From the IMG/VR virus record IMGVR_UViG_3300037195_001552, positions 697-64,696 of that record: 64,000 nt of DNA; one strand, 5' to 3'. How positions within the stretch are numbered: the stretch's first letter is position 1; every line of letters begins with the position of its first letter. Below, one piece after another: positions 8,084 through 63,724 of the stretch. The notes under the pieces were generated by a model. That model saw only the letters and a program-made list of their open reading frames with translations, was not told where the DNA came from and made no database searches. The position numbers were made by a program, and so were the translations under genes. Origin of the DNA: a virus. Lineage: Duplodnaviria; Caudoviricetes.

Positions 8084-10888
8084 ATGACAGACGCTGAAAC
8101 TGAAGCGGCTCTTAGAAAACTTAGCCAGAAGCTAAGTACAGGAGGGCGTGGATCTGGAGATTTCAGTGTTGCTGATCCTGAAAAGGGTTATTGGGAAGAA
8201 GCTGGAGACTGGTTATCTGAAATCTTTACTGGGTCTGAACAAAGAAAAGATTTGGAAGCCCGTGGTATTTCAGTAGAAGGTGCTCCCGTCGGTATGCGAG
8301 CATCTGCTTCCTTTAACCCAAAGGCTGAAGATAAAGCGATTGACGTTGCTCGTCAACTCATGGAAGAGCATGGTTCTGATGTAGATATCAAAGTCGATCA
8401 TCGTACAAACCGACTCAAATATAAACATCCTAAGAAAGGATGGATCATTTTTGATCCTCCTGGAATGGATATGGGAGATTGGACCGAGTTGGCCGGTGAA
8501 CTTCCCGCCATGACACTAGAAGGTCTTACCTATTGGCTCAGTAGAAAAATTCCGGGCAGGAATATTCTCCGTCGCGGACCTAAACGCGATATTGCATTAA
8601 AGGGTACTGCGATCGCTACAGGAGGAGCGGCTGGGGAAGCTGGTCGTGTGAAATATGCCCAAGAAACAGGTATGCAAGATCATCTTACTAAAAAAGAAAA
8701 AGAAGAACAGATGGTCATGGAACCTCTCAAAGCCGCTGGCCTCGGTGTAGCGGGAGGTGTTGCTGGTCGTGCCACCGGAGGCGGGCTTAAATGGGTTTGG
8801 CAGATGGCAAGCGGTAAGCGAGTTCCTGCCGTCTATCGTAATCGTCTTAAGGTGTTTGCAGAACAGAGCCAGGAACCAATTGAACTTATCAATGATTATT
8901 TGAAAAAATCAGGCATTGATAAGAAATTCTCACCAACGCCTTCTCAGGTGTTAAGAGATCCAGAACTTCATCGGGTAATGCAAAACATTATCAATGATAA
9001 ATCCATGCCCGATCAGTCAAAACTTATTATTCAAGCCTATATGGACAACTATAGTGCTCTAAAATCAGCTTTGGACGAGGCCGGTATCAGAGCTGTACCG
9101 CTACAAGCCGATGAAGTCAGTGAATTATCCGCTGGAACCGCCTTAAAAAGAGAACTCGAAGCCCCTCTAAAGGCCGGAGAGCGCGCCGTGGCCCTTGGGG
9201 CCAGCAATAGGTCTAAAGCTGCTCGAGAGGCTCTCGAGGCCGTCGAGGCCACTGCTGGGCACGAAGCAGCCGACATGGGGGCGGGCGCAAGCTACCGTGA
9301 TCTTTTTGAAAAAGCCGTACAGAAACATAGAGATCGGTTTAATCGCCTATATTCAGAACTTTCAGATACCTACATCAACCGTACTGTTCGTCCGACCACA
9401 TTACGACATCTTCTAAAGAAAGAGCTTGCTCTTTACGAAAAAGATTTAGCTGAAGGCTCCTGGCTTGTGGGAGAAGATCAAGCTCTTTTTGAAAAGATTC
9501 TTAAAAATGTGGATACTGCTCGTATTAGTTCTAGTGGAGCTAATATTCGGGGAGCTCCTGAAGTTGATCTTCCTGTTTTGGATCGTTTTATCAAACAACT
9601 CAAGGCAGGTGAACGAAAATTATATGGAAAAGACAATACGGGTCCTGCATTAGAATCTATCAAACGACTTCGCGAAGCAGCCGAAAAAGACTTTGCTCGT
9701 GGATTAGCTGATATGGGTCCAGAAGCTGTGGTCAAAAAGGCTCAGCTCGATGAACTTTATAAAGCAGAACAAGACAAACTGGCTCGCGGCACCGTAGCTA
9801 AGATGATAAAAATAGATGCTGACGGTATGCCTCGTGTTACCGATGAAAAAATGTTCAATTATTTCTTTGGTCGTGATGTCGCTACAGGAACTCGTAGCAA
9901 GCATATTCATCGTGTTCTGTCTGAACCACAGTATCATGCTGAACGTAAACAAGTTGAAAATACAATTTTTCAACAGTTTATAAGAGAAAACAGTGATCCA
10001 GTTACCGATAAACTCATTGGGAAAAAGGCGAAAAACTGGCTTGATCAGCGTAAACAAAATCTTGATCTGTGGTTCAGTCCACAACAGCAACAGATTTTGC
10101 GAAACGCCGAAACTTCGGCAAGTGCCGTAAAGCGATGGGAGCAACGTGAGAAAAATTTCCAAAAGGCGTTAAAACACGCCTACGGAGCTACTGTCACAAA
10201 GTATGGTAGAGAAGGAGTACTTCAGCCCGAAGAAGTTTTCAAAAAGATGTGGGATAATCCTATCGGGCTCGAACGTATGAAATCGCGCGCGACCAAGTTT
10301 CCTAATGAATGGGATATGTTCCGTAAGGCCGGACTAAAGCGTATTGAAAAAGACATCACAGCTTATGATAAAAATCTTGAAGCAGATGTCATTAACTTTG
10401 ATAAATTGAATAAAATTTTAGACGATCAAGACTATATGAAACGTATTCGAGTTCTTTATGGAGATCAGTATCTTAAGGATCTCCGTATGATTCGAGAAGG
10501 AGCACAGATTTTAGATCGAGATATTGGAAGTAGAGTATCAAAAGATAAAAACGGCTGGGTGGCGGTCGTTCGGAACATGGTGTTTGGTCCTCTTAGTCAT
10601 AAAAACTTCGCCTACAAAAAAGGTTCGGAAAAAGTTCAACAGGTTCAGCTTGATAATCTGAAACGTCTTCTATTAGACACAGATCAATTAAGAAAAGTTG
10701 CAAACGATATCGACACCAGTGAAGGAACAAAACATGCTCAGACCCTGTTAGGGGCCGGGGGCGCTCAGTTTGCAGGAGACGCTGATACAGGTGAATCCTA
10801 CCGTGGGGGAATACCGGCTGTTGATGCTCTTGCAGATCGGGTTAAAAACGATAAAGTCCTTCAAGAGAAGATCCGTGCGGCGCAGTGA
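8084..10888 (+). CDS. large internal virion (ejectosome-type) protein
   Basis: 934 aa, mostly helical; last gene of the late operon. Confidence 0.6.
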   Translation: MTDAETEAALRKLSQKLSTGGRGSGDFSVADPEKGYWEEAGDWLSEIFTGSEQRKDLEARGISVEGAPVGMRASASFNPKAEDKAIDVARQLMEEHGSDVDIKVDHRTNRLKYKHPKKGWIIFDPPGMDMGDWTELAGELPAMTLEGLTYWLSRKIPGRNILRRGPKRDIALKGTAIATGGAAGEAGRVKYAQETGMQDHLTKKEKEEQMVMEPLKAAGLGVAGGVAGRATGGGLKWVWQMASGKRVPAVYRNRLKVFAEQSQEPIELINDYLKKSGIDKKFSPTPSQVLRDPELHRVMQNIINDKSMPDQSKLIIQAYMDNYSALKSALDEAGIRAVPLQADEVSELSAGTALKRELEAPLKAGERAVALGASNRSKAAREALEAVEATAGHEAADMGAGASYRDLFEKAVQKHRDRFNRLYSELSDTYINRTVRPTTLRHLLKKELALYEKDLAEGSWLVGEDQALFEKILKNVDTARISSSGANIRGAPEVDLPVLDRFIKQLKAGERKLYGKDNTGPALESIKRLREAAEKDFARGLADMGPEAVVKKAQLDELYKAEQDKLARGTVAKMIKIDADGMPRVTDEKMFNYFFGRDVATGTRSKHIHRVLSEPQYHAERKQVENTIFQQFIRENSDPVTDKLIGKKAKNWLDQRKQNLDLWFSPQQQQILRNAETSASAVKRWEQREKNFQKALKHAYGATVTKYGREGVLQPEEVFKKMWDNPIGLERMKSRATKFPNEWDMFRKAGLKRIEKDITAYDKNLEADVINFDKLNKILDDQDYMKRIRVLYGDQYLKDLRMIREGAQILDRDIGSRVSKDKNGWVAVVRNMVFGPLSHKNFAYKKGSEKVQQVQLDNLKRLLLDTDQLRKVANDIDTSEGTKHAQTLLGAGGAQFAGDADTGESYRGGIPAVDALADRVKNDKVLQEKIRAAQ

Positions 10889-17865: not shown

Positions 17866-17879
17866 AAGTGTGTTATTCT
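17851..17879 (+). promoter_or_regulatory. sigma70-like promoter upstream of the modification cluster
   Basis: TTTGCG-17 nt-TATTCT. Confidence 0.4.
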
Positions 17880-17928
17880 ATGTGGCATAGAAAGCAGAAA
17901 TCGAACCATCATCAACGAGGTACAGGAA

Positions 17929-18183
17929 ATGCCCAGAAATACCGATACGGTTGCTATCGATGTGGAATCCGTTGTTCGGATTCCGAAAGAGACCGAGGCC
18001 AAGCCCAGGCGGGAAGGCTCCAAGGTCGCCAATTTCTACGCCGCGTACAAGGATGGTATAACCGTCGCCAAGTGGCTGGAGGCCGTTCGCCCGCTCGGCG
18101 GTGGTCTTTCCAATCTTCGGAAGGACCTCAAGGTCGGCCGGATCACGCTGGAAGCTCCCAAAGCGAGCAAGAAGGCGGCATAA
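17929..18183 (+). CDS. small basic putative DNA-binding protein (distant homolog of 39413 and 40388)
   Basis: Pattern RxG[ST]...G.TV..[WY]...G.ITL is shared with the two ORFs at 39.4 and 40.4 kb. Confidence 0.6.
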   Translation: MPRNTDTVAIDVESVVRIPKETEAKPRREGSKVANFYAAYKDGITVAKWLEAVRPLGGGLSNLRKDLKVGRITLEAPKASKKAA

Positions 18184-18247: not shown

Positions 18248-18553
18248 ATGAGTAAAGCCACCCACGAAAAGATCGCAGACGACGCCCTGGCGCGTATTGC
18301 GAAACTGAAGACGTTAAATACTGACGCCCTGGCCAAGATCAAAGATCTGCAAGAGCAGGTTGAAACGGCGGATAGACATATGATGTCCTACGCTGATGCG
18401 GCGGATACGGCTGTTGAAGCCTTGATCCCCCTCCAAGCTCGACTGGATGAAGCCAACATCCTTCTCCGCCAAGCAGTTGACAAACAACTGGTGTCGCCCT
18501 ACGCTGGCACCTGGATCACGGACGTGAAGGCGTATTTTTATGAGACTTCCTGA
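18248..18553 (+). CDS. hypothetical coiled-coil protein
   Basis: GGAG RBS; overlaps the next gene. Confidence 0.6.
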   Translation: MSKATHEKIADDALARIAKLKTLNTDALAKIKDLQEQVETADRHMMSYADAADTAVEALIPLQARLDEANILLRQAVDKQLVSPYAGTWITDVKAYFYETS

Positions 18554-19394
18554 ATTCTACGGCTTTATGAAGGAGCGGGAGCAAATCCGGCTCAACCGGG
18601 AGGCCGGTAAGCCTTGGCCTTGGACTGATGACCCCATACTTCAGGAGTATAAGTTCACCAACGTGAAGCGGGCACATGATCGGACGACCCGTTGGTTTTG
18701 GAGTGTGCTGGATGAACACAAGGACGACCCTCCTGCTCATCTGTTGTTCAATTGCGCTGTTTTTCGTTATTTTGGAACTATAGAATTCTCCAAGCGCATC
18801 GGCTGGATTTCCAGTTGGGATGAGAACCAAAAGAACATCATCAAGAACAGAGCCAAGGACATGTTGTCCAAGAAGCAAAAGGTGTTCACCGGGGCCTATG
18901 TCATAACGAACCAGGGCATCAAAGCCCCGAAGCAAGAAGTCGTCGTCGATATCTTCCTGGAGGGCCTGTTTTTCCGTCTCAAGGCGTTAACCAAGATCGC
19001 CCATGAAACAAGCCGCTGGGAACTGGTCGCCAAGGAGATGATGGAAATCCAAGGCTTCGGTGGCACCGGCTTCATGACCAAGGAGGTTCTTCAGGATGCG
19101 ATGCACACACGAGTCCTTAGCGACTGCACGGATCGTAATACGTGGTGTCCTGTCGGTCCTGGTGCCCGTCGTGGACTTAATCGGGTTCTTCGCCGGGATG
19201 TGAAAGCTCCCTTGTCGAAAGACGAAGGTCTTTATCACATGAAAGGTATTTTCGAAGAACGAGACGGCTACTGGCCTACGAACTGGGTGAAGCTTGAACT
19301 CCACGACATTCAGTTCCAGCTTTGCGAATTCGACAAGTACGAAAGAGTGCGCCTTGGCCAAGGTCGCCCGCGGAGCAAGTATAGGAGAAAATAG
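18540..19394 (+). CDS. aGPT-pyrophosphorylase / 5-hmdU DNA kinase helical-domain family protein
   Basis: EREQIRL...PWTDDPILQEYKFTNVKRAHDR N-terminus, GPGARRGL helix-hairpin motif and CEFDKYERV...GRPRSKY C-terminus. Confidence 0.8.
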   Translation: MRLPEFYGFMKEREQIRLNREAGKPWPWTDDPILQEYKFTNVKRAHDRTTRWFWSVLDEHKDDPPAHLLFNCAVFRYFGTIEFSKRIGWISSWDENQKNIIKNRAKDMLSKKQKVFTGAYVITNQGIKAPKQEVVVDIFLEGLFFRLKALTKIAHETSRWELVAKEMMEIQGFGGTGFMTKEVLQDAMHTRVLSDCTDRNTWCPVGPGARRGLNRVLRRDVKAPLSKDEGLYHMKGIFEERDGYWPTNWVKLELHDIQFQLCEFDKYERVRLGQGRPRSKYRRK

Positions 19395-19709: not shown

Positions 19710-21053
19710 ATGAAAATCCTAATAGCATTTCACGATTTGATGGACCTGGGGGGTATCATCAATAATCAGGAGGACTTGTACGCCGGACTGACCGAGCTAG
19801 GTCATTCCGTCGATACGGTCAAACTGATCTGGAAACCCCGGATCACCACCACCCGCACACGGACCAAGCCCTCACGGGTCGTTGGCAAGATGGGCTGGCC
19901 TATGGATCAAAACGGCGGCTGGGTCTGGCCTCACAGCGCAAAGATCCCATACAAGGGCGCGGGGCCGATGCACCGCTGGAAGGAGCGCGCCAGCAAGTAC
20001 GATCTGATTATTTGGCAGATCCCAGTGCCCTCCAAGAATAAGAATAACCGGGGTAATGCAGACTGGCTGGAACTCTATAATATACCCGTCAAGCAGATCG
20101 CCTACGTCCACGACGGCAACTTCCCCGCACGATACCCCTGGCTCTACGCAATCAAGGACCATCTCTGTGGCGTCGGAGCGACGCACCCGTGCGGGTATCA
20201 TTCATTGGCGAATATTGACCTGCCACGGGCCTTGTTCTTTACGTCCCAGGCTGATCAGGAAGAGCGAAATGCTGGGGCGGGGTTTCGCGATCGGCAGCCG
20301 GGGTGGTTTTCGCTGCAGACCTTCAAGGGCTGGAAGCATGTTGATGATCTGGTGCGGGCAGTGCCTTACATGGATATTGGGGTGTCTCCGACAATTTTAG
20401 CCGGGGGCGGTATTCAGTGGTACTACATGACTTCCAAGGACAAGTGTAAACCCGAATATTTGGTAAATCTTAAGAATGACCCAGACGCCACGGACCAGTA
20501 TATCGGACAACGTATTTGGGAACGGGCGATTGAATGCGAGCTAGACTACAGGGGGTATATTCAAAATGTCGAACGGGAAGAGATACTCTCAAACGTCCGG
20601 TTCCTTATCGATCCTTCGTGGTCGGCGAAATTTGCTAAATTTGGTGACCATCCTAATCGCGTGTCTATTGATGCTCTCATTAATGGCGCTGTCCCTATTG
20701 CCCGAAATCATGGAATCGCTGGATCTGATAATGGAATAGGTGAATTCTTTAAGGCGGGGTTGAACTATGTCATGATCCCGTGGGACGCTACGCCGAAGGA
20801 ATTCGCCGAACATGTCGATGAAGCGATGAATATGGGCGAGAATACCTTTAACGACATGCTGCACGAAGGTCGTAAGGTGGCGGCGCTTTGGGATAACCGG
20901 GTGGTCGCCCAACACTTTATTGACATGGCTGAGGGTCGGCCCTCTGGTGTTTGGAAAACGCCAGATGACCGAGGTACGTTCAAACAGGAACTCGCCGATA
21001 AAAGCAAGCAGATGCTGGAGGAATTCTTTAATGCGAACGATACACGCACGTAA
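19710..21053 (+). CDS. GT-B fold glycosyltransferase (putative DNA-modifying)
   Basis: MKILIAFH...GGI N-terminus; KGWKHVDDLVRAV, ILAGGG and DALINGAVPI sugar-nucleotide motifs. Confidence 0.7.
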   Translation: MKILIAFHDLMDLGGIINNQEDLYAGLTELGHSVDTVKLIWKPRITTTRTRTKPSRVVGKMGWPMDQNGGWVWPHSAKIPYKGAGPMHRWKERASKYDLIIWQIPVPSKNKNNRGNADWLELYNIPVKQIAYVHDGNFPARYPWLYAIKDHLCGVGATHPCGYHSLANIDLPRALFFTSQADQEERNAGAGFRDRQPGWFSLQTFKGWKHVDDLVRAVPYMDIGVSPTILAGGGIQWYYMTSKDKCKPEYLVNLKNDPDATDQYIGQRIWERAIECELDYRGYIQNVEREEILSNVRFLIDPSWSAKFAKFGDHPNRVSIDALINGAVPIARNHGIAGSDNGIGEFFKAGLNYVMIPWDATPKEFAEHVDEAMNMGENTFNDMLHEGRKVAALWDNRVVAQHFIDMAEGRPSGVWKTPDDRGTFKQELADKSKQMLEEFFNANDTRT

Positions 21054-22065
21054 CGTCAACGATGCCTTTACCGTAGGGGTGCGTATGTTGCTGTCTGACG
21101 GCTTTCGACAGCCGTCGAGGGTGGGTGAGGTGCTTACCATGGGCGGGCCTGTAACCACCACTTACGAGTGCCCCAGGGAGCGTGTGCTGTTCCACGAGGC
21201 CCGTGACGCCAACCCCTTTTTCCACCTGATGGAAAGCCTGTGGATGCTGGCGGGCCGTGACGATGTTAAGTGGATTTCTGAGTTCTCCTCGGGAATCAGC
21301 CAGTTCAGCGATGATGGTGTATCCTTTCACGGGGCTTACGGGTTTAGGTGGCGTAATCACTTTGACTTTGATCAGCTCAAGTCCATTCAGCATGTTCTGG
21401 AAGAAGATCCTAATAGTCGGCGAGCGATACTCGGCATGTGGGATCCGAACTGCGACCTGGGAGGCTTCGGCAAGGACTACCCCTGTAACTTATCCATAGC
21501 CTTTCGTATTCGGCATGAACGGCTGGATATGACGGTGTTTAATCGTTCCAACGATATCATCTGGGGGGCTTACGGCGCGAACGCGGTGCATATGTCCGTT
21601 CTCCAAGAAATCCTTGCGGGGCTCCTTGGTGTAAAAGTCGGTCGCTACTACCAAGTGTCCAACGACTATCACGCCTACGTCGATGTCATCGGCAAGTTGG
21701 GAGAAGTCCAACCTCATCCAATGTGCCCGTATGATAACGGCACCGTGCGGTTTCATAATATGGTGCCTTACCCAGAGGATTGGTTCAAGGATCTTGAACT
21801 ATTCATAAAAGATGGGGGATACCTTTCGCCTGTTGAATACAGCAACCCGTTTTTCGGTGGTGTCGCTTTGCCGATGATCAGGGCGTGGAGACATTGGAAA
21901 AGGAAACATTTCTTAGACGCCCTTACGGAAGTTGGGATGATAACCGCGCCGGATTGGCGCTTTGCTTGTGACGCATGGATAAGGAGGCGATATGAACGAT
22001 ACGTACAAGCGGATAAGAGCGGGGGGACGCGTACGAAGGTGGCACACGATACCGGTCATCAATGA
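21031..22065 (+). CDS. thymidylate synthase-family enzyme, probable dUMP hydroxymethylase
   Basis: SRRAILGMWDP, catalytic YPCN, RSNDIIWGAYGAN (Asn at the dUMP-specificity position) and HAY. Confidence 0.8.
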   Translation: MRTIHARNVNDAFTVGVRMLLSDGFRQPSRVGEVLTMGGPVTTTYECPRERVLFHEARDANPFFHLMESLWMLAGRDDVKWISEFSSGISQFSDDGVSFHGAYGFRWRNHFDFDQLKSIQHVLEEDPNSRRAILGMWDPNCDLGGFGKDYPCNLSIAFRIRHERLDMTVFNRSNDIIWGAYGANAVHMSVLQEILAGLLGVKVGRYYQVSNDYHAYVDVIGKLGEVQPHPMCPYDNGTVRFHNMVPYPEDWFKDLELFIKDGGYLSPVEYSNPFFGGVALPMIRAWRHWKRKHFLDALTEVGMITAPDWRFACDAWIRRRYERYVQADKSGGTRTKVAHDTGHQ

Positions 22066-22495
22066 GGAAACCGTCGCCCATCATAGCTGGGGCGTGGCTA
22101 CCGTTCTATTGGCTCTTTGGCCAGATTGCTCTCGTGAGTTGCTTGTTGCTGCTCTTTATCATGACGTGCATGAGTCTGTTACTGGTGATATTCCTAAACC
22201 TGCTTTCTGGCGTAACCCAAATCTGGCGGACGTTGTCGACGATATTGAAGAAGATGTTCAGCGTGAATTAGGAATTACTCCCGCCCTTACTGACAAGGAA
22301 AAGGAGCAGCTCGCTATAGCCGATATGTTTGATCTTTGTTTCAGATGCGAGGAAGAAATTCTTCTGGGTAATAAAAGTTTTGAAGATATTCTGCGGGCGG
22401 CATCGGCGTGGCTCTGGGGTGTTAAGCTAGAAGGTGCGGCTGAGAAAATGAGAAGTTCTTTTAGAAATTGGATGAAGGAACGAGGCATTCTATAG
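21992..22495 (+). CDS. HD-domain 5'-deoxynucleotidase (YfbR-like)
   Basis: VRRWHT...ETVAHHSW, LYHDVHESVTGDIP, ADMFD. Confidence 0.85.
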   Translation: MNDTYKRIRAGGRVRRWHTIPVINEETVAHHSWGVATVLLALWPDCSRELLVAALYHDVHESVTGDIPKPAFWRNPNLADVVDDIEEDVQRELGITPALTDKEKEQLAIADMFDLCFRCEEEILLGNKSFEDILRAASAWLWGVKLEGAAEKMRSSFRNWMKERGIL

Positions 22496-39114: not shown

Positions 39115-39332
39115 ATCTAGGGATGATGGATTATCTTTTCAGAGACACCGGTCACGATCACTCTCACGTGTCCATAGAATGTCGCTCGGCAACCATGGAT
39201 TGTCGTTGTCACTCTCTCTTCTTCTCTTCCCTCAGGATTATGCCATAATCCTGACCGGATCATCTCCCCCCCACGCTACGAGAGACATGGGCCGTTACTG
39301 GCACAATCGTCAGGATTTTGGCCATTATCCCG

Positions 39333-39361
39333 TTGCCATGACGCTTGCCATGGGGTACCAT
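39333..39361 (+). promoter_or_regulatory. sigma70-like promoter of paralog A
   Basis: TTGCCA-17 nt-TACCAT. Confidence 0.65.
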
Positions 39362-39412
39362 GGTTACAGTTACATTGCAGTGATGTAACAGCCATGAGAA
39401 AGGATTAATGAC

Positions 39413-39790
39413 ATGGCATCCAAGACCCAAAAGACCGAGACCCCCGCCCCTGCCGTCCGCGCGACGGATCTTACCGCCTGCAAGATCGTGGTCAAGGACC
39501 CCAAGGCGTCCGCCGCCCTGGTGGACCGTCACAGCCGGGCGCGCACCGCGAGAAACCAGCGGTGGCACATCCTGGTCAGCATGGACGGCAAGACCATTGC
39601 CGACTACTACAAGGCGGCGAGGGAGGCTGGCGTCCCGGTCTCGGCCAACAATCCCATCCGGGCCGCGTCCTTGGGGATCATCGGCTTGGTCACCGCGTCG
39701 GGTGACGACTGGACCAAGGCCAATACGGCGGCTGTCCTGAAACACGCACCCGCCGCTGTCCGCAAGCAGTTGGCTGCGTCCGCCAAGTAG
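39413..39790 (+). CDS. small basic protein, paralog A (normal codon usage)
   Basis: 125 aa; AGAAAGG RBS; aligns along its length with 40388-40714. Confidence 0.8.
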   Translation: MASKTQKTETPAPAVRATDLTACKIVVKDPKASAALVDRHSRARTARNQRWHILVSMDGKTIADYYKAAREAGVPVSANNPIRAASLGIIGLVTASGDDWTKANTAAVLKHAPAAVRKQLAASAK

Positions 39791-39802
39791 CCTATCAACC
39801 AC

Positions 39803-39834
39803 GGCCAGGGTCTTCGGACCCTGGCCATCTTTTT
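39803..39834 (+). terminator. intrinsic terminator
   Basis: 10-bp stem GGCCAGGGTC/GACCCTGGCC, UUCG loop, then ATCTTTTT. Confidence 0.8.
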
Positions 39835-39842
39835 GGAGAAGT

Positions 39843-40049
39843 GTGATGAAGCACTCCCGCAAGCCCGGTGTCTTGAGTAAGGACGGCACACCCTACGCGC
39901 CTTCGTCACTGTTCGTCGTTAATAAAGACGGATGGCAGACTCCTTATAACTATACTCCGCAATCTGTCCTTGCCGCGTTTTTGAGCGACAAGGTCGTGAA
40001 GATTATTCTTACGACGGAGGACAATGTGGAGCACACCGTCGTGAAGTAG
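39843..40049 (+). CDS. small hypothetical protein
   Basis: GGAG RBS; bounded by two terminators. Confidence 0.5.
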   Translation: MMKHSRKPGVLSKDGTPYAPSSLFVVNKDGWQTPYNYTPQSVLAAFLSDKVVKIILTTEDNVEHTVVK

Positions 40050-40058
40050 TTTGTCATG

Positions 40059-40088
40059 AGCCCCGCTGTCTATGGACGGCGGGGTTTT
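40059..40088 (+). terminator. intrinsic terminator
   Basis: AGCCCCGCTGTC-TATG-GACGGCGGGGTT followed by TT. Confidence 0.65.
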
Positions 40089-40121
40089 GATTTGCCTAGA
40101 CTGCCGATGAATCGCCGATGG

Positions 40122-40149
40122 TCTCAAGATTCGACAAGCGCGCATAATA
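40122..40149 (+). repeat. 28-bp direct repeat, copy 2
   Basis: Exact match to 39087-39114. Confidence 0.9.
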
Positions 40150-40312
40150 TTCGCATGAGGACGAGAGACGATCGGTCGTCTTCCGATCACGACTACGATA
40201 CACATATCAATGGATCCACCGCCAGCCGCCGGTGTCCGGATTTTAGCATAATCCTGACGCGGACGCTTGCCGCCGGGCAAAAGGTGACGTCCTAATTTTC
40301 GCTGCTATTTTG

Positions 40313-40341
40313 TTGCCATGCCGGGTGCCATGGGCTAACAT
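40313..40341 (+). promoter_or_regulatory. sigma70-like promoter of paralog B
   Basis: TTGCCA-17 nt-TAACAT, entirely inside the GA/TC-free island. Confidence 0.65.
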
Positions 40342-40387
40342 GTACGTACATTGCATATGGCAATGCACACAAGCAAAGGGTAAGCAC

Positions 40388-40714
40388 ATGTTTAACACAT
40401 GCAAAATTACTACCAACAAAAACACGGTTGCCACGTTGGCGGCTGCCGCACGGCCCGGCACGGCCCGTGCCCAGCGGTGGGCCATACTGGCCACTATGGG
40501 CGGCCAAACGGTAGCCGCCTACTACGCCAAGTGCCGGGCGGCGGGTTGCCCGGTAAGTAGTAATAACCCCATACGCGCTGCCGCGCTGGGGGCCATAACG
40601 CTAACCTTGCCCAACGGCACCAATTGGGCAACGGCCAACCCGGCCACGCTGGCCAAACATGCCCCGGCCAGCATACGTAAGGCCATGCTGGCCAAGGCGG
40701 CTGCGGCCAAGTAG
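40388..40714 (+). CDS. small basic protein, paralog B (GA/TC-free, no Asp/Glu)
   Basis: 108 aa from MFNTCK; RBS AAAGGG; TAG stop; homologous to 39413-39790. Confidence 0.8.
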   Translation: MFNTCKITTNKNTVATLAAAARPGTARAQRWAILATMGGQTVAAYYAKCRAAGCPVSSNNPIRAAALGAITLTLPNGTNWATANPATLAKHAPASIRKAMLAKAAAAK

Positions 40715-40722
40715 CCGGGCCA

Positions 40723-40774
40723 GCCGGGCCGGGGGCGCGGTGCCCCCGGCCCGGCACCCCCAAAAAAATTTTGG
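40723..40774. other. 14-bp perfect GC hairpin followed by C5-A7-T4 tract
   Basis: GCCGGGCCGGGGGC-GCGGT-GCCCCCGGCCCGGC, then ACCCCCAAAAAAATTTTGG. Confidence 0.8.
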
Positions 40775-40887
40775 AGATACTTAACTAACTTTTGCATGGC
40801 CGGAATCCCAGAACTTTCGCCCTTGCATCTCCGCCCACCTCCCCCTACCCTTACCCCCTATTCGATCTTCGAAAAACGAAAGATCAC

Positions 40888-41625
40888 ATGTCCGCACTCG
40901 ATAAGATCATTCGTCAACTTCCTTTTGAAAAGCTTCTCAAGCTTTTTAAGTCCACCTCTCGTGGACGAGGCGCCCTTTCCAATCTTTCTCCTGAAGGTAT
41001 CAATTCACTTCGAACCCGATCTCCCAATGAAAGGACAGCACTCAGTACTCCTCGAGAATTCTTGAATCTCGCATACCCTGTTGAAAAATGGAGTTCGCCT
41101 GAAGATAGATTCCTGATAGATCAAATTAAAGACAATTGGGATCAAGGGCTTAATAATATTCCCATACTGGGAATTGAACGATTCCCCATGTCCCATATTA
41201 CAGATCCTTTCATACGCGAACTCTCAAAAGATATCTCACAATATGAAGATGCTTTTGAAATGACAGCAACTGAATCTAACCGTCATCTATTTGATTTAAA
41301 TCTTCGAAAAATGTTTGACAAACGTCGTCAATATCAAGAAAAAGCGTATGAGTCGGATATAGCAGCGGTGACTGGACATGAGGGGCGACATAGGGCAAAA
41401 CTAGTGGCCGAAGAGTACGGTGAAGATTTTCCTTTTATCTTTAATCTTTCCGATGATTTAAATTCCCCCGTATTTTATGACGATAAACTTCTTCCTGTTC
41501 CTCGCATACTCTACGATGAATCATTACCAGCAGACTTTGATCCTTTCAATCTTCCTCTCCCACGAAACATGCCCGATATTCTCGGCGCCCTCCCACGCCC
41601 CACCGACAAGCGCAAGTTCGCCTAA
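40888..41625 (+). CDS. ParB/Srx-like domain protein, array member 1
   Basis: MSALDKIIR start, PREFLNLAYP, IPILG, GHEGRHRA. Confidence 0.6.
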   Translation: MSALDKIIRQLPFEKLLKLFKSTSRGRGALSNLSPEGINSLRTRSPNERTALSTPREFLNLAYPVEKWSSPEDRFLIDQIKDNWDQGLNNIPILGIERFPMSHITDPFIRELSKDISQYEDAFEMTATESNRHLFDLNLRKMFDKRRQYQEKAYESDIAAVTGHEGRHRAKLVAEEYGEDFPFIFNLSDDLNSPVFYDDKLLPVPRILYDESLPADFDPFNLPLPRNMPDILGALPRPTDKRKFA

Positions 41626-41627
41626 CC

Positions 41628-42266
41628 ATGCCCGCCCTTGACAAATTAATTAGACGACTCGCTTCTTCAGAAGTTCTCGAAAAACTTTTGTCCACGCCCC
41701 GTGGCCGACAGGCGCTCTCACTTCTTGATCCACAAGCTCATCAAAATATTCTTCGCCGGGATCCCTATTCCATGCACGCGATTTCATCTCCTCGAGAATT
41801 CCTCGATCTAGCGTATCCCGTCAAGGATTGGAATCACCCCGAGGAAATCGCAAAGATCAAAGCTATCCGTGATAACTGGGGGGCTGGACTTCGTGAAATT
41901 CCCTTCCTCGCTACTCAACGTCACAAAGAATATATGCGAGATACTTTTGATGATCTTGACTACGAAGTATACCCCCCGTCTTTTCTAAAATGGTTGGATA
42001 CCCCACGAAACATGCCTCTTATCGATGATCACCAGGGCAGGCACCGCGCGAAATTGATAGAGCAACAGTACGGCCCTGAACATCCTTTTCTTATTGAGTT
42101 AGAATTAGGTGAAGATGTTTTTTCAAATCCCCAAACCAGGATTTTTCCTGAAAATTATCTAGATCGTATAATTGATTTCCCAGACAAAGATCCCACCCGT
42201 CCCCCTCTCAAGGATATCCTCGGCACTCTCCCTCCCTCCTCCGCTGCCCTAACCGATGTAGCCTGA
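41628..42266 (+). CDS. ParB/Srx-like domain protein, array member 2
   Basis: MPALDKLIR start, PREFLDLAYP, IPFL, DHQGRHRA. Confidence 0.6.
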   Translation: MPALDKLIRRLASSEVLEKLLSTPRGRQALSLLDPQAHQNILRRDPYSMHAISSPREFLDLAYPVKDWNHPEEIAKIKAIRDNWGAGLREIPFLATQRHKEYMRDTFDDLDYEVYPPSFLKWLDTPRNMPLIDDHQGRHRAKLIEQQYGPEHPFLIELELGEDVFSNPQTRIFPENYLDRIIDFPDKDPTRPPLKDILGTLPPSSAALTDVA

Positions 42267-42652
42267 TGCCCGCCCTTGATAAACTTCTTCGTTTACCCCA
42301 AGTTCGAAGGGCCATTGAACGATTGCTCATTGATCCCCCTTCTAATCGCAATCGATATGCGGGAGGTTCGCTAGATTCCAACATATTGTCATTCCATGAA
42401 GATCCCCCGCTTCCCCGACAACGTGCTCCAAAGCTGGGATCTTTTACTCGAGAACTCAAACGAAACTATTCTTCGCCCTTTATGGTTGATAAATCATCCT
42501 CGCCTCCTTCCCCGGCTATGATACAACGGGCGATTGACTTCTCAGATCCGTATATCTTCTATCACGACCGTCCACGACTTCTCGATCTTCCCTCTGACAC
42601 CAATATATCCGATATACTCCCGAATTGGGAAGAATGGCTGAAATCCCAGTGA
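42266..42652 (+). CDS. array member 3 (shares MPALDKL N-terminus, different interior)
   Basis: MPALDKLLR start and a C-terminal SDIL motif like members 1 and 2. Confidence 0.6.
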   Translation: MPALDKLLRLPQVRRAIERLLIDPPSNRNRYAGGSLDSNILSFHEDPPLPRQRAPKLGSFTRELKRNYSSPFMVDKSSSPPSPAMIQRAIDFSDPYIFYHDRPRLLDLPSDTNISDILPNWEEWLKSQ

Positions 42653-43347
42653 CCGTTCTTCCCGGCCCCAACACTCGCCCTTCCCACCCCAGCCCTTTTC
42701 AACTGACTGGACTTTATCGGAAACTTCTCACGGAACTTCCCGCACCGGTCCTTGACACTATTCGAAAAATTATGATTCAACTTGAAAAGGATGCGTTGAA
42801 AAAACGTTCTCCCAGTCTCGAACACATGGGATTCGGTGTTTCTCGCCCCAGCTTCCCCGAACCCCTAGGAATTCAGCGAGGAGCTCCCGGCCAAGTTCAA
42901 ATCCCCGATGAATCTGAAGCTATGGAGTTTCTCACCACCCCCTTTGACCCTGAAACCAGACTTTTCACTGTTCATCCTCATTCAGACATCATGCGAAACG
43001 CAGAGACAAAAGAACTCTTTGAAAACCCGCTCCATGAGTTTTTCTCACCTAGCGATCTTCAGTTCATGGAACACCCCCAACTTCCGAATAGGTTCAACAC
43101 AGAACATTTCAAGTTCAAAGGGCGTGCGCTACCTGAAGTTTCCCCTGGGGATCCCACTATTCGATCATATCGTCCGAAGTATCCGGGCCGTAATCGCCGA
43201 GAACTCGTCGAGAATCTTTTCCCCGAAGGCCGCTGGCTAGATGAACTGGACTATGGTATACCGATCACTTCAGATCCCACCGCTATCGCCAAGCGATGGG
43301 AAGATCTAGCCAAAGACGATTGGTTTGATTATACGATCTTTGAATAA
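42634..43347 (+). CDS. JAB/MPN-like protein, array member 4
   Basis: EHMGFG...FTVHPH...FSPSD; C-terminal DDWFDYTIFE. Confidence 0.55.
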   Translation: MAEIPVTVLPGPNTRPSHPSPFQLTGLYRKLLTELPAPVLDTIRKIMIQLEKDALKKRSPSLEHMGFGVSRPSFPEPLGIQRGAPGQVQIPDESEAMEFLTTPFDPETRLFTVHPHSDIMRNAETKELFENPLHEFFSPSDLQFMEHPQLPNRFNTEHFKFKGRALPEVSPGDPTIRSYRPKYPGRNRRELVENLFPEGRWLDELDYGIPITSDPTAIAKRWEDLAKDDWFDYTIFE

Positions 43348-43363
43348 GGTTAGGAGCTCTCCC

Positions 43364-43777
43364 ATGACTTCCCCCTCCACCACGATCATGATCAACCGCG
43401 AGGATTTCGACGCTCACGCCTCCGATCCCTCAAAATTCGAGTCCTACCTCCGATCCCGTGGGAAACCGCCTACCTTCCCCTACACGACCAACGGTCGTCG
43501 AGTGACTTGGGGACCCCCGGCCCCCACCGACGACGCCCCCACCGACGAAGACCTCGGCGTCGACACGCCCACGGCCCCCGCCCCCACGGGTTCTTCTTCC
43601 TCTGCAACGGCAGACGAGGACGACAAACCGTTGCCCCTGACAGACATAGATTTCACCAAGTTCAACAAGACGCAGCTCCGCGACTGGATCTTCCAGCAAA
43701 CGTCCACTCGTCCGCCGCGCTTCCACAAGAAGGACACTCTCATCGCCACCGCCGTCCAGATCCAAAACGATGGCTAG
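43364..43777 (+). CDS. protein with C-terminal Rho-N/HeH-like helical motif
   Basis: Low-complexity linker, then FTKFNKTQLRDWI...KKDTLIATA. Confidence 0.55.
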   Translation: MTSPSTTIMINREDFDAHASDPSKFESYLRSRGKPPTFPYTTNGRRVTWGPPAPTDDAPTDEDLGVDTPTAPAPTGSSSSATADEDDKPLPLTDIDFTKFNKTQLRDWIFQQTSTRPPRFHKKDTLIATAVQIQNDG

Positions 43778-44405
43778 TCTCCCACCACCCGGCGCACGTC
43801 CTCAGTCACCTCCACCCCTCTACCAGTTGGCAGGGTTCAAACGACGTGCGCTTGAAGACCTTTCAGCCCCGGTGCTGGATGCTATCGCTAAAATTCAAAA
43901 ATTAATATCTCAGGAAAAGAAAATTCTCAATAGAGAATTCTTAGGATATGGATTTCAAGATCCAAAAAACAGTTCTCTTGAAGACATTATATGGGGTCAA
44001 GAAGATAAAGTCTTAGTACTACCGGGTTCGCCGTTCGATATTTTTCAAAAACAGAGCCATTTCGGTAAAAGACCCTTTACCGTTCATAATCACTTGGAAG
44101 GTGAACCTCCTTCAGAAGAAGATCTTAATCAGGCTTTTTGGCCCGACCATAGATCCCGTTTTCGTGGAGAACACTATAATTTTGGGAATCTTTTGAATTC
44201 CACCCCCCGTGCCGAAAGCATTCAGGCTCTTCCGAAAATAGAAAGTTATGATCCTGAATATTTTAGACGATGGAAACGTGGGTTGGATCTAGGTATGGCA
44301 GAAGAAATTTACGGCGAAGACTTTGATCTACCCGACCATGTCATACGTGAAAATCTACGCCGCTTCGCCGATGAAGATTGGTTCAACTACACCGTTTTCG
44401 AATAA
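43770..44405 (+). CDS. JAB/MPN (RadC-like) protein, array member 5
   Basis: REFLGYG...FTVHNHLEGEPPSEED; ends EDWFNYTVFE. Confidence 0.7.
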   Translation: MASLPPPGARPQSPPPLYQLAGFKRRALEDLSAPVLDAIAKIQKLISQEKKILNREFLGYGFQDPKNSSLEDIIWGQEDKVLVLPGSPFDIFQKQSHFGKRPFTVHNHLEGEPPSEEDLNQAFWPDHRSRFRGEHYNFGNLLNSTPRAESIQALPKIESYDPEYFRRWKRGLDLGMAEEIYGEDFDLPDHVIRENLRRFADEDWFNYTVFE

Positions 44406-44407
44406 TC

Positions 44408-45103
44408 ATGGCCTCCCTTCCCCCACCTTCTTATCGCCCCCAGCACCCTGATCTATTTCAGCGGGCGAAGTTTTTGCGGCGAGGATTACAGGACCTTCCT
44501 GCGCCGGTACTAGATGCTATTGCTAAGATCAAAAAGGCGTTGGAACGAGATTTTCGTAATCGTGACATTATCGATCGCGAATATTTCGGGTATGGCTATG
44601 AAGGTACGTCACCCTTATCCAGGATAATTAGGGGTGAAAAAAATGCAGTTGAGATTAAACCGGGCAGTGATGAGCATAATTTCATGACCTTCCCCGAAAG
44701 CCCTGTTCTCGTGCGCCCGGATAGATTCTCCCTTCATAATCATCCTCATTTGCAAGATAAACCGGGTCAAGGATTCATGCTTGGTAATCTAGAACATTCG
44801 AAAAACTTTTCTACGGGGGATATTGAAGGATTCATGTCTCCGCAATTTTCAAATAGATTCAAAACAAATAATTATCTGATGGTGGGTGAAGCCAATGATC
44901 CCGTAACTCCGCTAGGAGCGGAAGCGATTACGTCTCTTAGGCTTAAACCCCATCCTAATCGTTTTCGATCGCAAGAACATCTGTGGAATACAATAGGTCC
45001 ACAGATCTATGGAAAATCTACCCCCCACACACCTGAAGAGGTTCAAAGGCAGTTTCGTGAAAAGGCCCTCGAGGATTACTTTGATTTCACCGTTTTCGAA
45101 TAA
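44408..45103 (+). CDS. JAB/MPN (RadC-like) protein, array member 6
   Basis: REYFGYG...FSLHNHP...NFSTGD; ends EDYFDFTVFE. Confidence 0.65.
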   Translation: MASLPPPSYRPQHPDLFQRAKFLRRGLQDLPAPVLDAIAKIKKALERDFRNRDIIDREYFGYGYEGTSPLSRIIRGEKNAVEIKPGSDEHNFMTFPESPVLVRPDRFSLHNHPHLQDKPGQGFMLGNLEHSKNFSTGDIEGFMSPQFSNRFKTNNYLMVGEANDPVTPLGAEAITSLRLKPHPNRFRSQEHLWNTIGPQIYGKSTPHTPEEVQRQFREKALEDYFDFTVFE

Positions 45104-45105
45104 CG

Positions 45106-45732
45106 ATGGCTAGTCTCCCGCCCCCCGGCTATCGCCCCCAGCACCCTGATCCATTTCAGCGGGCGAAGTTCCTTCGTCGATCTCTTAGAGATATCCCCGC
45201 CCCTGTGCTGGACGCTATCGCCCGAATACAAAAGTTGATCGCACGGGAAAAACTCATCCCCGATCGAGAATTTTTAGGATTTGGTTATCAAGACAAAGGG
45301 CTATTAGGGATACATAAGGGTCAGCAGGATATGATCATGACGCCCCCTAATTCTCCTTACGGTAGATTTCAAACAAAAAATCACCCCACTGGCTCTAAAC
45401 CATTCACCATTCATAATCACCCTGGTGCGGAGCCTCCTTCAGAACAGGACTTTAATGCGGGTTGGAACCCCCCGTTCCCATACAATAAGACTGCCGAACA
45501 CTATCAATTTCCCAGTGATCTAAAGAACTCTCCATTTGTTGAAAGTTTTCAGCAAACACCAAAAACCCGTGAATGGGATCCAAAATCCTTCGAAAGGTGG
45601 CCCCGTGGTATTGACCTAGGCATGGGCGAAACAATCTATGGGGAAGACTTCGATCTACCCGACCATGTCATACGTGAAAACCTACGCCGCCTAGCCGACG
45701 AAGATTGGTTCAACTATACAGTCTTCGAATAA
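45106..45732 (+). CDS. JAB/MPN (RadC-like) protein, array member 7
   Basis: REFLGFG...FTIHNHPGAEPPSEQD; ends EDWFNYTVFE. Confidence 0.7.
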   Translation: MASLPPPGYRPQHPDPFQRAKFLRRSLRDIPAPVLDAIARIQKLIAREKLIPDREFLGFGYQDKGLLGIHKGQQDMIMTPPNSPYGRFQTKNHPTGSKPFTIHNHPGAEPPSEQDFNAGWNPPFPYNKTAEHYQFPSDLKNSPFVESFQQTPKTREWDPKSFERWPRGIDLGMGETIYGEDFDLPDHVIRENLRRLADEDWFNYTVFE

Positions 45733-63435: not shown

Positions 63436-63457
63436 TCTAATACGAAAGGATGAAGAC

Positions 63458-63724
63458 ATGGGTAAACTTGCACGGCGTCAAGTGATCGACCGGAAGGAAG
63501 TGCTTGAAAATGGCATTATCCAATTACGAATAGCGAATATCGTTTCAGACGATGGTGTCGATTTCAGCAAGACTTACGTCGGTCGGCGTTTGATCCATCC
63601 TGGCGATGACGTAAGTGCTGAGTCTCCGGAAATACAGGCTCTTTGCGCTCTTGAGCACACGCCTGAGAAGATCGCTGCTCAGGAAGCACGAGTAGCGGCC
63701 AGTAAGGCCAGGGGCGTGCCATGA
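63458..63724 (+). CDS. tail fibre chaperone-like protein
   Basis: EVLENGIIQLR...DDGV.FS...RRLIHPGDDVS.ES.EIQA.C pattern. Confidence 0.7.
   Translation: MGKLARRQVIDRKEVLENGIIQLRIANIVSDDGVDFSKTYVGRRLIHPGDDVSAESPEIQALCALEHTPEKIAAQEARVAASKARGVP

Follow-up and report, generated by a model that had tools for sequence, protein, structure and literature searches.

A transcription unit free of GA and TC dinucleotides in an ocean phage genome with a thymidine-modification gene cluster

Several phages, among them M6, ViI, PhiW-14 and SP10, carry thymidine hypermodifications that derive from 5-hmdU (PMC5889632, PMC8989533, PMC6449724), and the conversion of 5-hmdU has been described as taking place 'in sequence-specific contexts' (PMC8989533). 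The sites that resist restriction in M6, ViI and PhiW-14 suggest TG/TC (PMC6449724), and among the phage T-dioxygenases 5mYOX97 prefers NTC and 5mYOX176 prefers NTG (PMC13229309). Both in M6-type systems and with these dioxygenases, modification is limited to a part of the thymines, in TC or TG contexts. Gene clusters with a thymidylate-synthase-like (TS-like) enzyme, an HD-domain protein and aGPT-Pplase1 are also carried by HTVC023P-type pelagiphage clades (PMC9599517).

The 64,000-nt stretch of phage DNA analyzed here (the window, bases 697-64696 of a 64,696-bp genome) likewise has TS-like, HD and aGPT-Pplase1 genes next to PolA. According to dinucleotide counts, the TC context holds about 27% of the thymines of this genome, a share that falls inside the range reported for modified T in such phages. 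The same window contains one complete transcription unit, hereafter unit A', from which both GA and TC are absent. This GA/TC-free island is real, strongly selected, recurrent and previously undescribed; no description of dinucleotide-free cassettes in phages was found in the full-text literature.

The thymidine-modification cluster

The initial annotation of the sequence had placed a base-modification cluster at 18.5-23 kb, and its genes turn out to be of the thymidine-hypermodification kind. The aGPT-Pplase1-type protein (18540..19394, plus strand; PF18723, 3.7e-41) is 31% identical to M6 gp55, and its homologs in phage records are annotated as aGPT-Pplase1. The TS-like enzyme (20920..22065, plus strand; PF00303, 5.6e-21; phrog_5131, 1.9e-111) is 47% identical to M6 gp58 and is a candidate dUMP hydroxymethylase, the context of the gene pointing to a hydroxymethylase rather than a methylase. 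An HD-domain 5'-deoxynucleotidase (21992..22495, plus strand; PF12917, 6.4e-17) is 38% identical to M6 gp59. These three genes adjoin PolA together with a fourth (19710..21053, plus strand), which encodes a 447-aa protein with a 73% identical ortholog in locus L024 (1738-3027). This protein gave no match in Pfam, PHROGs, NCBIfam or a PDB profile search, and its AF2 model has a pLDDT of 33. The PolA of the window is 44-46% identical to that of the HTVC023P-type group.

In contrast to M6-type systems, the cluster of the window shows no P-loop kinase and no PLP or radical-SAM enzyme, and has the 447-aa protein instead. The search for the P-loop 5-hmdU kinase by tblastn of M6 gp54 covered the whole genome and gave no match at E 0.01, a threshold that a divergent kinase could escape. 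The same gene set, including the ortholog of the 447-aa protein, occurs on a 66-kb contig that carries a second pair of a normal and a recoded gene (P0004/P0005, see below). In a third lineage, the P0015 phage, PolA and the HD gene stand at the edge of the fetched stretch. The comparison of the cluster covers these two phages and the window, the loci L015, L019 and L020 lying on short contigs. M6 and Bhz59 possess the homologous cluster, and no dinucleotide-free island was found in either of them; a rule by which an aGPT-Pplase1 cluster entails a dinucleotide-free island fails for both phages.

Extent and anatomy of the GA/TC-free unit

The island (40300..40774, plus strand) comprises the entire unit A'. 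As the initial annotation had claimed, its 475 nt contain zero GA and zero TC on both strands; the last site before it is the TC at 40299-40300, and the first one after it is the GA at 40774-40775. When GA and TC were counted over the whole 64,696-bp genome, this gap was the single outlier, with 475 nt versus 44 nt for the runner-up. For the other complementary dinucleotide pairs, no gap longer than 238 nt exists genome-wide, and this value belongs to the rare TA. Taken singly, GA is missing over 488 nt and TC over 507 nt, each about four times the longest gap expected (approximately 130 nt for TC). The base composition of the island predicts 55 GA/TC sites, with a probability of zero sites of about 4e-26, and the minimum among 100,000 mononucleotide shuffles of the island was 34 sites. 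Back-translation of the acid-free protein with the codon usage of the genome (20,000 trials) gave 22 sites on average and 9 at the least. Since even back-translation never fell below nine sites, the constraint acts on the nucleotides as well as on the amino acids.

Across the window, GA and TC are not depleted, with observed/expected ratios of 1.057 and 1.077, respectively, so the bulk of the DNA must be either protected or indifferent. Genome-wide motif avoidance of the kind directed at restriction sites was accordingly rejected: the word is not under-represented, and the depletion is confined to one 475-nt unit. The flanks had been described as rich in GA/TC, which is correct for 40099-40199, where 25 sites per 100 nt tie the genome maximum, but not for the adjacent 100 nt, which hold only 11 sites against a mean of 13.5. 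This block of top density sits 100-200 nt upstream of the island. Two non-coding blocks, 40099-40199 upstream of A' and 39138-39238 upstream of its paralog A, hold 24-25 GA/TC sites per 100 nt and are rich in CGAT/GATC, the genome mean being about 13.3-13.5 sites per 100 nt and the maximum 25. A GA/TC-dense flank was also considered as a conserved partner of the island and dismissed, as it is weak in the related locus L021 and absent in L015, L019 and L020.

Gene A is indexed on 23 marine metagenome contigs, Tara Oceans runs included, ten of which were fetched. The island is intact and identical or nearly so on eight of these ten independent contigs, and the other two stop before the island is complete. 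A 99.7% variant strain has four substitutions within the island, and its changes in A' are two synonymous and two non-synonymous ones. Repeats are shared between the two ends of the contig, namely 1-76 with 63444-63519 (76 nt, 97%) and 1116-1265 with 64421-64570 (150 nt, 98.7%), and a second contig of 63.6 kb, assembled independently, ends at most about 1.2 kb away from this position. Given these repeats and the break of the second assembly, the contig ends look like assembly breaks and not like physical ends.

Within the island lie the parts of one transcription unit. The annotated sigma70-type promoter TTGCCA-17-TAACAT was located by a promoter scan at 40313..40341 (plus strand, 9/12 matches); it can be aligned with its counterpart in unit A, and the bases around it are conserved between the two units. 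The leader contains an operator-like perfect palindrome, CATTGC-N5-GCAATG (40349..40365, plus strand); a similar one, CATTGCA-N4-TGCAATG, occurs in the A' leader of the relative L021 (14831-14848), and the other lineages lack it. The ribosome-binding site AAAGGG (40373..40378, plus strand), which is free of GA, and the open reading frame of 108 codons ending in TAG (40388..40714, plus strand) both agree with the initial annotation. Gene A' encodes a protein with zero Asp/Glu (family profile score 118.8, E 4.8e-36). While normal members of its family have a AGAAAGGAG-type ribosome-binding site, the A' genes of all lineages have AAAGG or AAAGGG. Downstream of the stop codon, a GC-rich hairpin with a 14-bp stem (40723..40755, plus strand) is followed by A7 and T4 runs up to 40772, and the RNA fold of this 3' region reaches -46 kcal/mol. 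The hairpin noted initially thus exists as a GC-rich stem at about 40723-40755, but it was not called by the terminator scan, because the T run begins 13 nt past the stem. The purge begins 13 nt before the -35 box and ends just beyond the hairpin. It therefore takes in untranscribed DNA, about 48 nt ahead of the likely start of transcription, including promoter bases that bear GA/TC in unit A.

Approximately 1 kb upstream lies unit A, a normal twin from which the cost of the recoding can be read. Its promoter, TTGCCA-17-TACCAT (39333..39361, plus strand), was found by the promoter scan and by alignment with A'. It is followed by gene A (39413..39790, plus strand), a paralog of A' that encodes 125 aa with nine Asp/Glu and has 43 GA/TC sites, and by an intrinsic terminator called by the terminator scan (39803..39836, plus strand; 10-bp stem with eight GC pairs and a T run). 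The two proteins are 49% identical (BLASTP 3e-31), and the duplication includes the whole unit, since A (39320-39835) and A' agree in promoter architecture and in a conserved promoter/leader region; TTTTGGAGA stands downstream of both. There are 55 GA/TC sites in the 516 nt of unit A and none in unit A', at a nearly equal GC content (62.2% for unit A and 62.5% for the island, compared with 51% for the genome). In A', all Asp/Glu residues have been lost, with Ala, Gly, Thr or Asn in their place. Every TCN serine codon is gone, so that serine is written as AGY only; ATC is gone as well, isoleucine being mostly ATA, and the usual AGAAAGGAG-type ribosome-binding site has been given up. The footprint of a deaminase of the APOBEC or DddA type was considered and rejected: just 8 of the 52 aligned sites are TC>TT or GA>AA, and the GC content is unchanged relative to A.

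Between the island and the terminase gene, runs of paralogous open reading frames were observed at 40888-42652 and 42625-45732; three of them begin with M(S/P)ALDK, and four of about 210-240 aa follow. The reading frames in 40888-45732 had no Pfam match, and the two that were tried against NCBIfam gave no meaningful match.

Related islands and the encoded protein family

A profile built from A and A' retrieved 25 representatives of a small-protein family, with the approximate motif RPG..R..RW.IL..MDGKTV..YY..CR.AG.PC..NNP..A..KGLITL (alignment A3). Besides A', four representatives contain no Asp/Glu and one contains a single Glu, and all of them are encoded in GA/TC-free islands. Conservation of the island in relatives, on which the initial annotation had laid weight, could thus be established in four further lineages with zero GA/TC and in a sixth with one GA. 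The islands measure 566 nt around P0005 (loci L011 and L021), 470 nt around P0011 (L015-L018), 437 nt around P0022 (L019) and 534 nt around P0025 (L020); the one around P0015 (L026 and L027) measures 445 nt and includes exactly one GA, in its Glu codon. The runner-up gaps in these loci are 34-86 nt long, and the GC content of the loci is 40-51%. In every relative, the free zone extends from 82-117 nt upstream of the start codon to 23-107 nt past the stop and spans the leader, a hairpin and the promoter region, the latter wholly or for the most part. Promoter calls are ambiguous in L019, L020 and L026. In L020, the -35 box with the best score (TTGACA) falls immediately outside the island, and the promoter is clearly inside in the window only.

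Some short words were observed in these loci. The island of L020 is bracketed by TCATGACAATTT (558-582 and 1100-1115), and TCATGACAGA is found at the left edge of the L019 island (985-993); such words at the island edges may represent either a regulatory box or the scar of a duplication. In the leader/promoter regions of three divergent lineages, the motif TAGTGTAT..T.TGTATAGGC is conserved in the A' islands (L019, about 1030-1055; L020, about 607-632; L026, about 9996-10020), and it is unlike the CATTGC palindrome of the window and L021.

Four of the five other island phages also have one or more normal, acid-containing paralogs. P0004 lies 5 kb upstream of P0005, L019 has a P0026-like gene, L020 a P0024-like gene, and L026 two copies; no second copy was seen on the P0011 contigs, which are 1.1-1.7 kb long. 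In a maximum-likelihood tree, the acid-free proteins do not form one clade, although their shared composition should cluster them. The A of the window pairs with its own A' (support 90/93), the A of L021 pairs weakly with its own A' (85/41), and the A' proteins of L019 and L020 group together, apart from their partners. This polyphyly of A', together with the A/A' pairing in the window, suggests that A' may have been recoded repeatedly or homogenized by gene conversion, the tree support being moderate.

Selection on the islands is ongoing. Natural variation within the islands of four lineages amounts to 16 substitutions, and not one of them introduces a GA or TC, although about 33-35% of random substitutions would do so (P of 0/16 approximately 0.001). 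Of the 12 substitutions in coding sequence, ten affect the third codon position, and between L015 and L018 all six coding substitutions are at third positions and leave the protein identical. This bias indicates that the genes are truly protein-coding and that purifying selection acts on their products.

At 17866-18180 of the window (plus strand), just upstream of the modification cluster, lies what may be a third and very divergent gene of the A family; its match to the family profile is marginal (E 0.023, score 10.2, profile positions 22-97). The 447-aa protein of the cluster shows 73% identity in two phages with A proteins that share only about 33%. Other searches for relatives yielded little. 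A DNA search of 39300-41800 and tblastn searches with A, P0010 and P0005, all against the phage collection, found none, and neither did IMG/VR scans with the A1 alignment, two neighboring proteins and alignment A3; the IMG/VR scan with P0015 gave two short contigs only.

The AF2 model of the A protein (pLDDT 82.5) is winged-helix-like. VIA-align related it weakly (Z 4-6.2) to the sigma54 core-binding domain, to Fur/Zur DNA-binding domains and to ORC/MCM winged helices. Foldseek of the model against PDB and BFVD gave nothing below E 0.8, no Pfam match of the protein was above threshold, and the ESM Atlas returned unnamed viral clusters only. In two distant homologs, P0017 and P0018 (355-365 aa), the A domain is C-terminal to an N-terminal XRE-type HTH (PF01381), and it may thus act as an effector or partner-binding module rather than as the main DNA reader. 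From the winged-helix-like model and this fusion to an XRE HTH, A/A' is probably, although with low certainty, a small basic regulator that binds DNA or polymerase.

Explanations of the purge and comparison with known systems

The loss of GA together with TC and the purge of promoter DNA indicate that the constraint is a feature of double-stranded DNA and not of mRNA. The explanation that we favor, to which we give an even chance, is that A' is an unmodifiable early copy of a small regulator gene, from which TC has been purged by selection. The thymidine-modification pathway would decorate T only where C follows, and a cassette without TC or GA would stay ordinary DNA, in the virion genome as well as throughout infection. 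The promoter and template of A' would then be readable by the unaided sigma70 RNA polymerase of the host, whatever the modification elsewhere, and the cassette would also be open to protein binding regardless of the modification state of the remaining genome. A' would be the constrained, 'always readable' copy, paid for by the lack of Asp/Glu, a weaker ribosome-binding site and rare codons, and A would be the unconstrained one. If the recoding has impaired the protein, it is understandable that a normal paralog is retained. In this explanation, we infer the TC context of the modification, its effect on transcription and the regulatory role of the protein.

Some observations stand against this explanation. 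All the other genes are rich in GA/TC and must nevertheless be transcribed, and no phage RNA polymerase was found among the ten large open reading frames scanned against PHROGs; modification thus cannot block transcription in general. Elongation should be little affected by a modified base in the non-template strand, and yet the purge includes both strands. In addition, M6 and Bhz59 lack an island, and the kinase, PLP and radical-SAM enzymes were not found. A bolder form, in which A' is a starter gene, recoded repeatedly and independently, that alone can be read by the unaided host RNA polymerase on an incoming hypermodified genome and whose product opens the remainder to transcription, is possible but doubtful. 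If it were true, hypermodified thymine would be a genome-wide transcriptional lock as well as a shield, and the missing dinucleotide of the island would reveal the context of the modification enzyme from sequence alone.

An escape at the level of mRNA would place the constraint in the transcript, which would avoid GA and thereby evade an ADP-ribosyltransferase similar to CmdT or an RNase with a dinucleotide target in single-stranded RNA. CmdT of the CmdTAC system reads exactly GA, ADP-ribosylating the adenine in mRNA, and Shine-Dalgarno sites contain GA (PMC11618068). Such an enzyme would be blind to the A' mRNA and its ribosome-binding site, which has been rewritten as AAAGGG, and every GAN codon has been lost. 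However, CmdTAC acts on single-stranded RNA and leaves unexplained both the loss of TC, which is significant independently (a gap of 507 versus about 130 expected), and the purged promoter DNA, which extends for about 48 nt before the likely start of transcription. We regard this explanation as very improbable. An escape at the level of DNA appears rather unlikely. The cassette would evade an enzyme that attacks GA/TC in DNA, and the remaining genome would be protected otherwise, for example by modification. Either the host, as a defence, or the phage itself, as a weapon against the host, might supply the attacker, for instance a nuclease, a DNA ADP-ribosyltransferase or a TC-specific deaminase, and the cassette would be the minimal expressible unit with zero targets. 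An all-or-none purge of both strands fits a situation in which a single site is fatal; the boundaries are those of a minimal promoter-to-terminator fragment, and the undepleted GA/TC elsewhere (observed/expected 1.06-1.08) fits bulk DNA that is protected or indifferent. However, neither this phage nor its host is known to have such an enzyme, a genome that is cut elsewhere would still be lethally damaged, and an intact 475-bp fragment is of little obvious benefit. Known DNA-targeting systems read longer motifs; that of DarT is TNTC, which would not demand the purging of every TC. Against a deaminase in particular stand the mere 8 of 52 sites with TC>TT or GA>AA and a GC content equal to that of the paralog. 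Were the purge nevertheless due to such an attacker, it would point to an enzyme reading a two-letter DNA word.

The two remaining explanations take the gene as incidental or the island as functionless. The island might have to stay unmodified for packaging or ejection, as first-entering DNA or as the region recognized by the terminase, and in the three lineages with long contigs A' does lie upstream of the large terminase gene, at distances of 5 kb in the window, 2 kb in L021 and 0.8 kb in L026. Its boundaries, however, track one gene unit and not a site, the A' protein is under purifying selection, and unit A, only 1 kb upstream, is fully modifiable, which makes this explanation improbable. 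A functionless origin of the island, as a footprint of mutation, an artefact of assembly or synthetic DNA, has a negligible probability; nothing beyond its oddity speaks for it. This reading is contradicted by independent assemblies from many ocean samples, by the six divergent lineages and by variation that is mostly at third positions, and the substitution spectrum relative to the paralog is mixed.

If the reading of A' as an unmodifiable early copy holds, the island would be a natural cassette defined by the absence of a modifiable dinucleotide, the phage counterpart of an unmethylated CpG island. DNA hypermodification would then carry a cost that the phage must engineer around. The context of uncharacterized modification pathways would also become readable from metagenomes, the prediction here being T in TC. 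The A/A' family of small proteins stands out as a candidate early gene family, with a likely key function, in an abundant group of ocean phages related to the HTVC023P-type pelagiphages.

Compared with M6-type phages, for which no modification-free island has been described and of which neither M6 nor Bhz59 showed one, the window has an island free of GA/TC. CpG islands and engineered CpG-free expression cassettes combine a promoter and a gene that are free of a modifiable dinucleotide or of its modification. Like them, the island would make expression independent of the modification state of the genome. The resemblance is functional only: the CpG systems concern eukaryotic cytosine methylation, and neither homology nor a common machinery is implied. 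Phages are also known to avoid restriction sites, and the early region of T7 with gene 0.3 is site-poor. In both cases, a short word is removed so that an enzyme cannot act, and, as in T7, an early gene with a host-type promoter would be concerned. Unlike in restriction-site avoidance, the word in the window has two letters, and the purge is local, absolute and costly in amino acids; the avoided enzyme is probably the phage's own, and a normal paralog of the recoded gene is kept.
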